IMG/VR virus record: IMGVR_UViG_3300035390_000014 | Span: 128,001 to 192,000 of that record | DNA from: a virus | Lineage: Duplodnaviria; Caudoviricetes | DNA length: 64,000 nt | Reading direction: 5' to 3' (one strand) | Part shown: piece by piece, positions 19,668 through 60,481 of the stretch | Layout of the letters: every line of letters begins with the position of its first letter | Position numbering within the stretch: position 1 is the first letter of the stretch | Position numbers and translations under genes: made by a program | Notes under the pieces: generated by a model | Seen by the model: the letters and a program-made list of their open reading frames with translations, nothing else | The model's database searches: none | Told to the model about the DNA's origin: nothing

Positions 19668-19743
19668 GCCGGTGTAGCTTATTGGGAGAGCCGAGAACTC
19701 TAAATTCTTGATTGAGTAAGTTCGATCCTTACCATCGGCACCA
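19668..19743 (+). tRNA. Amber suppressor tRNA, anticodon CTA
   Basis: gccggtg/catcggc, A73, CCA, D arm gctt/gagc, gagaa-ctCTAaa-ttctt (anticodon 19700-19702), T arm gtaag-ttcgatc-cttac. Confidence 0.88.
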
Positions 19744-23839: not shown

Positions 23840-24694
23840 ATGTTATGTGATTATGGTTGTGGTAAAGAGGCTACTCACCAATTTAAAAACGGTAAGTGGT
23901 GTTGTTCTAAACTATCAGTACATTGAGCTAAAATAGTTTCTATTAGGTCAATAGAAATAAAGAAAACTGCTAATACTCAAAAACATAAAGATAAAATGAG
24001 TAAAGTAATTAAAAAAATATGGAAAGACCCAAATCATATTTATAATGATAAAGAACATCAGAAAAAGAGAAATAAAATCTTAAGTAAAGCTCATTCTAAA
24101 CCAGAAACAAAAAAACTTAGATCAAAAATAATGAAAGAAAAATGGAAAGATAAAAATTCTGGATTGAATAACTCTAAAAGAAGTGAAGGAGCTTCAGAAT
24201 CAATGATAAAAGTTTGGAGTTCTCTTAGTGAAGAAGAAAGAAATCAGTGGTGTATTAACTGTTCTGTAGGATGGACTGAAGAAAAAAGGATAGAAAAATC
24301 TAAAGTTGCTAAACAAAAATGGTCAGAAGATGATTATAGAATTAAAATGAAAGATGGTAGACATAACTCTCCAAATAAGGAAGAAGAACAACTAGAAGAA
24401 TTATTAAATAATTTATTTCCCAATGAATATAAATTTGTAGGAAATTTTGATTTATTTATAAATGGTAAAAATCCAGATTTTGTAAATATTTTAAGTAAAA
24501 AAGTTATAGAATATTTTGGTTCTTATTGGCATAGTGAATTAATGACAGGTGAAAAAGAATATATTCATGAAAATAAAAGAATAAATCATTTTATAAATAG
24601 TGGATATAATTGTTTAATTATTTGGGATTTTGAATTTAAAAATAAGAAAGAACTTATTAAAAAATTAAAAAAATTTAATCAGGAGATATTATAA
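23840..24694 (+). CDS. Homing-endonuclease-like protein with in-frame TGA at 23924-23926 (track shows only 23996-24694)
   Basis: Hand translation MLCDYGCGKEATHQFKNGKWCCSKLSVH*AK... continues in frame into 23996; C-terminal Vsr/DUF559-like PDF...IEYFG.YWH domain. Confidence 0.65.
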
Positions 24695-34707: not shown

Positions 34708-36279
34708 TTGATAACAGAAACATTTCTAAATTCATGTTATAGTGTTGTTATAAACAAGACTATAAAAATTAAAAAAAATAAAGCATTATATAGAGATATC
34801 CTTTTAGTTTTAAATTTCCATGAATCTAAAGAACAGCTTGAAATTCCTATGGGAGTAAAAACTAAATTTGATTGTTTAAAGAAAATATGTCAAATGAAGT
34901 TGGATGACAAGTCAACTCAAAATTCTATTGATAGTTTGATGTATAGTAAAAAATATCAAGGACTGGGAGATTTTTTAGAATTTAAAAGAACTGAAGTAAT
35001 AAATGATACTAGTGCTGTTGACATAGTTAAACAAATTAGACTTAAAAAGACTTATAATTCTCTATTTGATAATTATGATAATTTAAGTACATTTGTTAAT
35101 CAATTTAGAGATGGTTCATTTGATAGTTTAGATGATTTAGCTTTGGATTATGAAAATATCATTCAACAAATGTATCTAAATATGATGAATGAAAAAAGAG
35201 GAGTTTCAATTGAGTCCTCAGCTTCATTAGATTTAGCAGCAGATGATTATACACATGTATTGGATTTAATTGTTAAAAAATATGAAAGAAAAAATACAAC
35301 TCCAACTGGTTATGCAATTCTTGATAATGAAGTTTTAAATGGAGGTGGTGAACCGTCTCGTATCTACATAATTGCTGGAGCACCTGGATCAGGTAAATCA
35401 ACTTTCTTAAATAATATAATTGTTAATGCGGCAACTCAAAGTGTTGATTTATTTGAAGAGAAGAGAGATCCAGTCGAAGCAAAGGTAGAAGGTATTGAAA
35501 ATGTTTATATTTATATAACCCTTGAAAATACTATTGAGGAATCTCTATTAAGAACATATCAACCATTATTTAAAAAAGATAAAAATGATGTATTAAGAGA
35601 TATATCAAATGGAGTTGATATAAAGAAAAAAATAAATGATAAGTTGAAAGCTTGTAAATCAACTATCATAATGAAGTATTTCCCTGCTATGAGCGTATCA
35701 TCGTTAGATTTAATGGCTGTTGTTGATGATGCCATTGCTGAATATGGTAAAGGCACCATAAAGGGTTTATACGTTGATTATTTGGATTTAATGAAATGTG
35801 ATACTAAATATGATATGTATAGACTTGAGCTTGGTCATATCACATTATCAATGAAAACATTAGCAGTTGAATATAATATACCTGTGTGGCTTCCTACTCA
35901 ATTGGGTAGAGGTGCATATAGAGTTCAAAATGCAGGAGAGTTGAGTTTGGATCAAATTACAGAATCAGTTAAAAAGGTTGAGCATGCTGATTTTGTTTTA
36001 TTGATGACAAGAGATCCAGTTAATGACAATAGAGTATATGGAAAAGTCGGTAAGAATAGAAGTGGTGTAAGTAATGTTAGTTTAGAGTTTGATGTTAATT
36101 TTGCACATTTTAGATTTAATAGTGTTAGAAAAATTAACAATCCAGCAGCTCCAGATGCAATATCAAATCAACAACAAGCAAATAATTTTGTACCTATCCC
36201 AATATCAAATAAACCATTGATTACTAAACCATCAAGTACTATTCCTAAAAGTTTTGGTGGGATGGGTGAAATTTTTTAA
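34708..36279 (+). CDS. Replicative DnaB-like (T4 gp41-like) helicase, TTG start
   Basis: Walker A GAPGSGKS, ITLEN, VDYLDLM, PTQLGR, GKNRSG. Confidence 0.9.
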   Translation: MITETFLNSCYSVVINKTIKIKKNKALYRDILLVLNFHESKEQLEIPMGVKTKFDCLKKICQMKLDDKSTQNSIDSLMYSKKYQGLGDFLEFKRTEVINDTSAVDIVKQIRLKKTYNSLFDNYDNLSTFVNQFRDGSFDSLDDLALDYENIIQQMYLNMMNEKRGVSIESSASLDLAADDYTHVLDLIVKKYERKNTTPTGYAILDNEVLNGGGEPSRIYIIAGAPGSGKSTFLNNIIVNAATQSVDLFEEKRDPVEAKVEGIENVYIYITLENTIEESLLRTYQPLFKKDKNDVLRDISNGVDIKKKINDKLKACKSTIIMKYFPAMSVSSLDLMAVVDDAIAEYGKGTIKGLYVDYLDLMKCDTKYDMYRLELGHITLSMKTLAVEYNIPVWLPTQLGRGAYRVQNAGELSLDQITESVKKVEHADFVLLMTRDPVNDNRVYGKVGKNRSGVSNVSLEFDVNFAHFRFNSVRKINNPAAPDAISNQQQANNFVPIPISNKPLITKPSSTIPKSFGGMGEIF

Positions 36280-57664: not shown

Positions 57665-58555
57665 TTACCAATCCTCATGAAAACAACCTATAGAAAGGTC
57701 ATCATCATTTATAAAACCTTTCTTAAGATATTCTTTCATTACCTTTTTAACACGTCTACTTAAAAAGGCACCCTTAGTCAATTTGAAATTCATCATTGAT
57801 GAAACGACATCTTTATAATTGAGTTCATTTTCTTCTGGTGTTAATGTTTGCTCAATAATCTTTGGCATCTCAGTTATAGAACCTTTCGGACTATCATTCA
57901 TAACTACATATCTTAATTCATTGTATAATTTCTTATACTGAATTTCTCGATTAAATACGAATGACTCAACTCCATCACTTGCTATAAAGAGATCCTGTAC
58001 TTCGTCTTCATGTATATGAATATCAAAACAATCCATACTTTGCCCTCTTAAATATTCACCTTTTTCAGTTTCAAAGAAAGCAGCCACATTAGAATTTTTA
58101 TAATTTTCAAACCCATCAATTTGATATCTCAAATAAGCCGGAGCATTTGGTTTATATATCATTCTTCTGATATTTACGTTACCATTGGGTTGTTTCCAAC
58201 ACAAAACACCATCACCATACATATATACATGATAATATTTACCAAATTTATATGCAATAATTAATGTTGCATCAAGACTATCAACCTTAGTATAAAACCT
58301 AGATTGAGTTTTCAAAGCATCAATAATTATACGTTCTCCCATTGCGTCAGGATATAAATCTGGAAGACGACTTTGATGCTCTTTTAAATATTTCAATGCT
58401 GTATGACATAAAATCCTTGCCCCAATATCACTATCCTTTGCTTGAGAACAACCATCAGCAAGAATAATATATGGACAAGGATTACTTCCAGATAAGATAT
58501 AATCTTGACATATGTCATGACTATGTCCTATCTTTAAAAAAGTATCAAGATTCAT
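57665..58555 (-). CDS. PP2C-like phosphatase
   Basis: GHSH..CQDY, LADGCS, ATL, GDG, ASDG, DD.SIG. Confidence 0.85.
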   Translation of the reverse strand: MNLDTFLKIGHSHDICQDYILSGSNPCPYIILADGCSQAKDSDIGARILCHTALKYLKEHQSRLPDLYPDAMGERIIIDALKTQSRFYTKVDSLDATLIIAYKFGKYYHVYMYGDGVLCWKQPNGNVNIRRMIYKPNAPAYLRYQIDGFENYKNSNVAAFFETEKGEYLRGQSMDCFDIHIHEDEVQDLFIASDGVESFVFNREIQYKKLYNELRYVVMNDSPKGSITEMPKIIEQTLTPEENELNYKDVVSSMMNFKLTKGAFLSRRVKKVMKEYLKKGFINDDDLSIGCFHEDW

Positions 58556-58665
58556 TGGTGACTCCTTAATAAATTAACCTACTTAAACCCGTCCAAAATG
58601 CTACCCATCCAATAACACCAAAAATTACTTTACCCATGAACGCCCACAAGGTTCTCCATTGTACA

Positions 58666-59121
58666 TCAGTCATTAAGTGCCTTCATTACATCTTTGATAT
58701 TGTATTCATCAATTTGCTGAAAACATTTATCACCGATAACTATTTCAACATCAAATTCAACTCCATTTTCATCAAAATAAGTTATCTTTGCTTCTTGTGG
58801 AGATGCATGAAATTGTTCATTGGTAATATCCCATCCAACCAAATCAGAATATATATCCTCTGCATATTCTCTTTTAAGGTCTACTCCCCTTAACCGAACT
58901 GCTTTCATAATTGCATCATCTGAATATCTATCACCTGACATAACCCACGGAGTTATATAGACTAGAATGTCTTCCCAGATATCACCACATGCTTTATAGT
59001 CTTTTGTTTCTTCTTCGTAATGGTCGCCATCACCAGACATATTCTTTGTGGTTAACATCCAAATATTCTTTGTTTTTGGAACTTTTATTCTTGAGCTTTT
59101 TTTAAATGTAATAGATTTCAT
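58666..59121 (-). CDS. Hypothetical protein; MSGDGDHY motif resembles WENDGDNY in 61719-62159
   Basis: ORF track. Confidence 0.55.
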   Translation of the reverse strand: MKSITFKKSSRIKVPKTKNIWMLTTKNMSGDGDHYEEETKDYKACGDIWEDILVYITPWVMSGDRYSDDAIMKAVRLRGVDLKREYAEDIYSDLVGWDITNEQFHASPQEAKITYFDENGVEFDVEIVIGDKCFQQIDEYNIKDVMKALND

Positions 59122-59123
59122 GG

Positions 59124-59393
59124 TTACTCCTTTTTTTCTTTGTTTGAAAGATTTATATTGAATGTTTCAGATGATGCTCCATCAGTTGGATCTTCATTAA
59201 TCTCACCAAGATGCCATAACAGTGCTTTACCAGCTATGGTAATTTCTTTGTCCTGTGTTGCCAATCCTTGTTGAACAAGATCCCATCCACAATTTGGATA
59301 TGAGAACATTGGTGGAAATTTGCCATATTTAGTAAAAGCAAGACACCCTTTAAGCATTGCAATTTGATCTTTTTGTTTTATAACATCTGTCAT
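59124..59393 (-). CDS. Hypothetical protein
   Basis: ORF with RBS. Confidence 0.55.
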   Translation of the reverse strand: MTDVIKQKDQIAMLKGCLAFTKYGKFPPMFSYPNCGWDLVQQGLATQDKEITIAGKALLWHLGEINEDPTDGASSETFNINLSNKEKKE

Positions 59394-59404
59394 TTTTATT
59401 TTCC

Positions 59405-59686
59405 TTATTTACATGGTAATGGTTTAAGATCACCCCATGTATCTGGTTGATTGGCAATCCAATACATTCTTCCATTTATTTCAATTACCTGGTTTCCGGC
59501 TATACATTTAATCCCATGCAAAACATTTTCTTTATATTCAATAATTTTTGGAGTGGGAATCTCTACAACTTCCTCAGTATAATTTTCATCTACAGAGTTA
59601 TCTCTATGTTTAATAACTTGTGGAATAGCAATTGCAGCAAGAATTCCAATAATTACTATTCCAATTAGATATTCTATAATATTCAT
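59405..59686 (-). CDS. Type IV pilin-like protein without leader peptide
   Basis: MNIIEYLIGIVIIGILAAIAIPQ aligns with mature pilin FTLIELMIVVAIIGILAAIAIPQ, including E5; two C-terminal Cys. Confidence 0.7.
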   Translation of the reverse strand: MNIIEYLIGIVIIGILAAIAIPQVIKHRDNSVDENYTEEVVEIPTPKIIEYKENVLHGIKCIAGNQVIEINGRMYWIANQPDTWGDLKPLPCK

Positions 59687-59743
59687 TTTTACCTCCGGTA
59701 AAATTTGGGGATCCCGATAATATCTGGGACCCCCAAGATTAAA

Positions 59744-60481
59744 TTAGAATGTTAGGTTCTGGGAAGGACCTCCAGTACCAAGGTTCTGACTCTGAGAAGA
59801 AATGGACTGACTAACAAATCCAAATACTTTAGCCGCCTGTGCAGAGGTCATACCACCAACATCAACAAATTGATCAAGACCAATATCCTTGACAAAAGCA
59901 TCAAGGTAATCTCTAATCTCAGATGCATAAGATGATTTGGTATCATAGAATCCAATAACAATGATCTTAACAGATTCAAGAATTTCTTTCATCTTAATTT
60001 CTTCAATCTTATCAACTATGGATTGAGCTCCAAGAGTTGAAGCATTGTCCATACCATCAGTATAAACAAATACTATTCCATTGGTACCGATATCAGATTT
60101 ATCCAGGACTTCTGCATATTTCTGAATTGCAGCAAGACCATTGAACACAGCATCATAAAGACATGTAGACCCACCAATTGACTGGGAGGGTTTGTAATCA
60201 TCTTCATCAATTTCCATAACCGGTTTAAATCCATGATCTTCTTCAATCCTGGACCCGAACTTTGTATAGTGAATCATCAGTTTATCAGCACGAGGACTTT
60301 TCTTACATGCCTGATTTACCAATTTCTTTCCATCACACATAATACCACGTACACCATTTGTTGAAGGACTTACATCCTCGGCAATTGATACCAGTGTGTA
60401 TTCATCTTCAGGGTTTGCCATATCTTCAGGGTCAACTCCAGAAAAACCAAAAGCATTATTCTCAGGTATTTCAAATTTCAT
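59744..60481 (-). CDS. vWA-domain protein (TerY-like)
   Basis: EDVSPS, T.LYDAV, VYTDGMDNAS. Confidence 0.8.
   Translation of the reverse strand: MKFEIPENNAFGFSGVDPEDMANPEDEYTLVSIAEDVSPSTNGVRGIMCDGKKLVNQACKKSPRADKLMIHYTKFGSRIEEDHGFKPVMEIDEDDYKPSQSIGGSTCLYDAVFNGLAAIQKYAEVLDKSDIGTNGIVFVYTDGMDNASTLGAQSIVDKIEEIKMKEILESVKIIVIGFYDTKSSYASEIRDYLDAFVKDIGLDQFVDVGGMTSAQAAKVFGFVSQSISSQSQNLGTGGPSQNLTF

Follow-up and report, generated by a model that had tools for sequence, protein, structure and literature searches.

A leaderless phage mini-pilin, starting at the mature-pilin register, from a phage-only family of small envelope proteins

To our knowledge, every type IV filament subunit described so far is made with a leader, removed by a dedicated peptidase. 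All class III signals feature a leader ending with Gly or Ala, which must go before the pilin can be assembled; Glu5, which forms a pair with the N-terminal amine of the following subunit, is important in filament assembly, together with Gly14 and Pro22 (PMC10191384). Minor pilins devoid of Glu5, located at the filament tip, are reviewed in the same paper. The literature searched contains no relevant paper on natural leaderless pilins, nor does it report a peptidase-free, "pre-cut" subunit for any type IV filament.

Protective phage-made pilins have been shown experimentally only in 2026: P-FimU, made by a phage, enters the pilus of Pseudomonas and stops phages that bind to its tip, and PilA-like genes, including truncated copies of about 60 residues, are found in virulent Pseudomonas phages, where a role is proposed (PMC12952977). 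The gene described here, encoding a leaderless mini-pilin, is comparable to these phage-encoded pilins (prophage P-FimU, P-PilA and truncated PilA; Sztanko et al. 2026, PMC12952977), being likewise a phage gene for a type IV pilin-like subunit. Like the truncated PilA copies, it keeps mainly the N-terminal helix, and a role in entering or inhibiting the host pilus, against other phages, is proposed for both. As far as can be judged from its sequence, the mini-pilin is nevertheless different from the known phage pilins: P-FimU and P-PilA, as described, resemble host FimU or PilA, whereas the mini-pilin has no leader, is pilin-like in its helix only (residues 1-34), and carries, on a stalk, an unrelated two-Cys mini-domain, or head, from a family unmatched in family libraries, GenBank phage records and the papers searched.

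PfsE, from the filamentous phage Pf, inhibits type IV pili, preventing superinfection (PMC8764522). Its likeness to the mini-pilin lies in being phage-encoded: prevention of superinfection via pilus inhibition is a property of PfsE, and is only proposed for the mini-pilin. PfsE is a peptide of about 30 residues, which binds PilC and is not pilin-like; this description sets it apart from the mini-pilin. Pilin genes from Geobacter encode a leader that is cleaved. Geobacter PilA-N (PDB 2m7g, 6vk9, 9egp) provides the best sequence matches, with residues 2-34 in register and E values from 5e-4 to 3e-3: like the pilin part of the mini-pilin, it is little more than an alpha1 helix; it polymerises in cellular filaments, and has no WGD mini-domain.

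The features of the locus are reported in Table 1. Unless otherwise indicated, positions refer to the window, i.e. the whole stretch of 64,000 nucleotides analyzed, which corresponds to bases 128001-192000 of a 202.7-kb virus record (30% G+C; estimated to be 65% complete). The NAD ligase of this record shares less than 30% identity with its counterpart from any cultured phage.

Table 1. Position of the mini-pilin gene, of its parts and of the related features.
Feature	Position	Strand	Basis or remark
Leaderless mini-pilin gene (P0001)	59405..59686	(-)	93 codons + TAA
Shine-Dalgarno GGAGG	59692..59696	(-)	5 nt before ATG
Pilin alpha1N-type hydrophobic helix, residues 1-23 (Met1, Glu5, Gly14, Pro22)	59618..59686	(-)	mature-register alignments
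Acidic stalk, residues 30-58	59513..59599	(-)	no conserved sequence; low-confidence coil, 4/25 identity to orthologue
Two-Cys beta mini-domain (CxxG...WGD...C), residues 59-93, Cys61 + Cys92	59408..59512	(-)	conserved in family
Stable hairpin in the 57-nt spacer from upstream-gene stop to ribosome site	59705..59736	(-)	folding energy
245-aa upstream gene	59744-60481	(-)	same reading frame as mini-pilin; TAA + 19 codons between
PP2C phosphatase gene	57665..58555	(-)	downstream of mini-pilin; Pfam
Paralogue pair	G000:C1:23513-23830 + 24068-24445 (L002 1495-1812 + 2050-2427)	(-)	outside window

The initial annotation had described a protein starting at the mature-pilin register (M1..E5), without a prepilin leader or cleavage site, and had named an alternative upstream start as a point to be checked. 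The check was run, and no leader-bearing start exists. Between the initiator ATG (59684-59686, minus strand), separated by 5 nt from GGAGG, and the TAA of the preceding 245-aa gene, the frame contains 19 codons, none of which is ATG, GTG or TTG; moreover, the residue at -1 is Lys, not Gly or Ala. No start can therefore supply a prepilin leader ending with Gly or Ala. A non-canonical AUU, six codons upstream, was rejected as an alternative start: it also gives Lys at -1, and it precedes the ribosome site. Read-through from the upstream gene, which lies in the same frame, was rejected as well, because its stop is TAA, which the tRNA with a CTA anticodon found in the window would not read. This tRNA (19668-19743, plus strand; labelled Pyl by ARAGORN), a possible amber suppressor, is one of the 11 tRNA genes of the window.

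Models for the prepilin signal agree with the lack of a leader and of a cleavage site: the mini-pilin scores 8 bits against the Pfam N_methyl model (PF07963; cut-off 21.2) and 12.1 against TIGR02532 (cut-off 16.3), in both cases below the cut-off, while its paralogue P0002 passes both. Of the two components of a class III signal (IPR012902), the hydrophobic alpha1N segment of 20-25 residues with Glu5 is present, and the leader ending with Gly or Ala for the prepilin peptidase is absent. The conclusion that prepilin peptidase can neither cut the mini-pilin nor be required by it is thus supported.

The start at the mature register is also borne out. The first 23 residues align, residue for residue, to mature type IV pilins, with Met1 at the position of Phe1; Glu5, Gly14 and Pro22 are kept, as in most canonical members of the family. 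When PDB chains were searched by phmmer, 18 of the 19 matches were type IV pilins or pseudopilins, the top one being Geobacter PilA (E 5e-4), and in the chains numbered from the mature N-terminus residues 2-24/34 of the query aligned with residues 2-24/34 of the chain. The NCBIfam models for PilA, GspG and ComGC match residues 3-31/43, with E values from 3e-5 to 3e-4, and the phage "pilin" family PHROG 3433 scores E 3.7e-4. A pilin-type consensus, written by hand from the canonical members of the family, is matched at 16 of the 23 residues. A profile of the mini-pilin subgroup drew more than 7,000 proteins: among the matches listed, all those external to the family carry PF07963. The similarity to pilins ends at about residue 34, and a whole-length likeness to a host pilin, head included, is not found. 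That the helix is really of pilin descent is supported by the canonical prepilin leader of the full-length members of its subgroup, described below.

The nearest relative, P0016, encoded by contig L014, is 47% identical overall and has a leader ending with K-G, followed by F; in the BLASTP alignment Met1 of the mini-pilin faces Phe1 of mature P0016. The ribosome-site context CCGGAGGTAAAA is common to the two genes, and the PP2C gene directly following P0016 encodes a protein 58% identical to the PP2C of the window, which indicates P0016 as the positional orthologue. The two genes differ by a 15-nt in-frame gap, covering exactly P0016 codons 3-7, N-K-G-F-T, when placed by eye against the proteins (MAFFT places it slightly differently); as a consequence, the initiator Met occupies the position that Phe1 has in a cut pilin. 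All four full-length members of the subgroup (P0016, P0051, P0052, P0033) carry the leader, with K-G followed by F-T-L-I-E; a fifth copy is a fragment on L026, whose N-terminus falls off the contig. The leaderless state is therefore derived. The leaderless, in-register form is a single case, from one contig: the mini-pilin matched only itself in a search of 5.8 billion clusters, and no leaderless start was found by exact-pattern scans of metagenome and viral contigs.

Within the neighbourhood, the PP2C and kinase genes are confirmed by Pfam, and for the 245-aa gene no vWA domain was matched in Pfam at E<=1. The mini-pilin and PP2C are separated by three small ORFs (58566-59393, minus strand), of 89 aa, 151 aa and 35 aa, the last being hydrophobic: they are absent from the orthologous locus on L014, and the 151-aa ORF has a match in PHROG 8562, a family without a known function. 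The whole 71-nt stretch around the hairpin reported in Table 1 has a folding energy of -25.9 kcal/mol (z -3.2); the hairpin is not called by the terminator scan, and might act either in termination or in processing. The ribosome site of the mini-pilin might itself be covered by a second, small stem.

Genes for a prepilin peptidase or a filament machine were searched for in the 202.7-kb phage record, and none was found. The PF01478 candidate reached 12.5 bits only, and was discarded; a weak match to the type II/IV secretion ATPase model PF00437 turned out to be a 523-aa DnaB-like helicase (PF03796, E 1.7e-20; 34708-36279, plus strand). As one of the paralogues encoded by this phage, P0002, is a true prepilin, the host must be equipped with prepilin peptidase and with some type IV filament machine.

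The mini-pilin is a member of a family of small, single-pass envelope proteins, found in phages only and not described before. About 50 members were found, which share one N-terminal membrane helix, a disordered stalk of about 30 residues and a 35-residue, two-Cys beta mini-domain. The tiny C-terminal domain with two Cys, already pointed out by the initial annotation, is thus the mark of a family: the two cysteines are 30-31 residues apart in 48 of the 48 aligned members. In the mini-pilin their spacing is 31, and all the invariant columns of the head are present, including the W-G-D motif and the Gly that follows the first Cys by three residues; the single N-terminal membrane helix, a length within the 60-150 aa of the family and a phage-like contig complete the picture. 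When the head profile was run against 1.84 billion proteins, 41 matches were obtained at E<=1e-3, nearly all of 60-130 residues; the mini-pilin scores 83.8 bits (E 5.6e-19). The head domain is not covered by any Pfam, PHROGs or NCBIfam model, and no member of the family is found in PDB.

Genes for phage replication (topoisomerase, PTPS, helicase, SbcC) are present on all the contigs examined, and the usual site of the family genes is between a topoisomerase subunit and the PTPS gene. Among 50,697 GenBank phage records, no tblastn match was found for the mini-pilin, nor for P0012, the orthologue of the anchor paralogue described below, and no GenBank phage has a DNA match for the mini-pilin locus. 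In IMG/VR scans with the family patterns, the pattern matches were not confirmed. All five confirmed matches from prokaryote genomes and JGI contigs were rejected as members: four are chance occurrences within unrelated enzymes, and one extends over 11 residues only.

Two paralogues are encoded by the same phage, 104 kb away (G000:C1 23.5-24.4 kb), in tandem, upstream of a gene for a 341-aa PTPS fusion. P0002 features a textbook prepilin signal, with a leader ending with K-G and then F-T-L-I-E (Pfam N_methyl E 1.3e-7), while in P0005 a plain membrane helix is combined with a long, basic tail on the cytoplasmic side; the mini-pilin, P0002 and P0005 share the last 35 residues or so only. Pairs composed of a prepilin and a basic-tail anchor recur in many aquatic metagenome contigs, between the topoisomerase subunit and PTPS. 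Eight family copies, with mixed anchor types, are found in tandem on one 6.9-kb contig (L016:2487-5478). In four of these eight copies the stalk includes an additional loop, Cys-x7-Cys or Cys-x8-Cys. Another observation from the same contig concerns P0042, which features a pilin helix with Glu5, but with Glu replacing Gly at -1, and is therefore probably uncleavable.

The structure of the mini-pilin was predicted by AlphaFold2, from the 48-sequence alignment. The model contains a helix (residues 3-29, pLDDT 94-97), a low-confidence stalk (30-58, pLDDT 63-66) and a three-stranded mini-domain (59-93, pLDDT 93-95), which, when folded alone, has a pLDDT of 89.5. At full length the pTM is 0.38, which suggests the lack of a fixed packing between the parts: in the model the helix ends at residue 29 and the head is separate, with no pilin head packed on the helix, a picture unlike the classical pilin lollipop. 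No convincing match was found for the head fold, either by Foldseek against PDB (best E 1.7) or by a wide VIA-align search (best Z 2.6); the clusters retrieved from the ESM Atlas were all viral or hypothetical. The head is probably locked by a disulfide, and is therefore probably located outside the cytoplasm; an activity there is argued for by the invariance of the two Cys and by the anchors of the relatives, which are clearly N-in.

The N-terminal anchors, in contrast with the heads, are of various types. According to our own count over the 48 aligned members, about 19 (some 40%) are canonical prepilins; a leader and an aromatic residue 1, but no Glu5, are found in about 5, basic-tail signal anchors in about 13 and short tails in about 10. 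Leader-bearing members without Glu5 (P0003, P0004, P0006, P0008) look like the tip-located minor pilins; the mini-pilin represents the opposite case, where Glu5 is kept and the leader is lost. Two of the short-tail members, in which a stop codon lies immediately upstream, genuinely lack a leader, and do not resemble pilins. P0043, also a candidate leaderless member, was discarded as a truncated gene call, since its frame extends to a canonical prepilin leader (L024:4941-5279): as this case indicates, apparent leaderless pilins in protein databases need to be checked at the DNA level. The presence of the same head on plain anchors and on prepilin signals lacking Glu5 indicates that a pilin helix is not needed for the core function of the family.

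Helix and head follow different patterns of conservation in the two subgroups. In the P0002 (sister) subgroup, heads are identical at 34-35 of 38 positions (about 90%), versus 9-12 of about 28 for the anchors: nearly identical heads on divergent anchors indicate that pilin features are dispensable there. In the mini-pilin subgroup the helix is the best conserved part, with 20-23 of 30 identical residues; the corresponding figures are 14-23 of 38 for the head and 3-7 of 26 for the stalk.

On these bases, it is tentatively proposed that the mini-pilin is a pilin-like subunit, independent of prepilin peptidase, which engages the pilus machinery of the host. Of the initial interpretation, in which the protein enters or jams this machinery for superinfection exclusion and bypasses PilD, the pilin descent of the helix and the independence from the peptidase are supported; an action on a pilus machine or on other phages is a proposal. 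Engagement of the assembly platform, without cutting, is favoured by the importance of Glu5, Gly14 and Pro22 in assembly, taken together with their conservation within the subgroup. The mini-pilin would be inserted N-in/C-out, as are its relatives, and would join the inner-membrane pool of mature-type pilins without the intervention of prepilin peptidase; by its helix and Glu5 it might then dock on the assembly platform of a host type IV filament, candidates being a type IV pilus, a type II secretion system or a competence pilus. Not having a pilin head, it could act as a rare, odd subunit displaying the mini-domain, or else poison or terminate the filament. What the phage would probably gain is a remodelling of the surface of the infected cell against further phage attack. 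As no basic leader is present, the membrane orientation of the mini-pilin is uncertain: no basic residue precedes the helix, while Lys26 and Arg28 stand just after it, and the positive-inside rule would favour the opposite orientation. A wider scenario appears rather unlikely, in which the phage lineage runs a diversifying set of mini-pilins, polymerised or displayed by the pilus or secretion machine of the host, the mini-pilin described here being a "pre-cut" subunit, either assembled or capping or poisoning the filament, with no peptidase step.

The swapping of anchors across the family, taken together with the tethered-head model, makes it nearly as likely, hence quite possible, that the helix merely tethers the mini-domain to the inner membrane, with all of the activity residing in the periplasmic head; loss of the leader would then be neutral, and the register a by-product of a small in-frame deletion. 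Such a protein could be, for example, a tethered blocker of the injection or wall-digesting apparatus of an incoming phage, by analogy with lipid-anchored exclusion proteins. The interchangeability of anchors among the 48 aligned members, the conserved heads on divergent anchors of the sister subgroup, the predicted architecture (helix, floppy stalk and independent head), the existence of truly leaderless, non-pilin anchors and the tandem arrays of diversifying copies are all in line with this. Yet, a mere anchor would not need a helix which, within its own subgroup, is better conserved than the head, Glu5, Gly14 and Pro22 included, and a buried glutamate is unusual in a simple anchor.

The loss of 15 nt may instead have disabled the protein, because of a wrong or mixed orientation or of a failure to assemble, so that a recent loss-of-function variant, not yet decayed, is being observed. 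It is the sole such allele found, the leader is kept in the four full-length members of the subgroup, and the basic residues, absent before the helix, are two just after it; on the other hand, the frame is intact, the ribosome site is strong and every invariant residue of the head is kept, and with 47% identity to the nearest orthologue an old deletion would imply that the gene has remained intact through a long divergence. A crippled allele thus seems improbable. Even less credit, almost none, is given to a role in lysis timing or to some other envelope function unrelated to pili, the mini-pilin being in this case a single-pass protein with a periplasmic disulfide domain, like the T4 holin or antiholin partners: the general architecture, with an N-in helix and a small periplasmic two-Cys domain, would fit, but no match to holin, antiholin or spanin families is found in Pfam or PHROGs, the surrounding genes are those of replication, NAD metabolism and kinases, not those of lysis, and multi-copy arrays are atypical of lysis genes.

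A natural subunit-like protein starting at the cut site would test whether cutting, with N-methylation, only lifts a block, and also whether the leader is needed for the correct membrane orientation. Finally, the family to which it belongs is small, phage-only, multi-copy and fast-changing, and swaps pilin signals with plain anchors: it is likely to represent a class of phage tools, still unexplored, which act on the envelope of the host and perhaps serve in the competition between phages.
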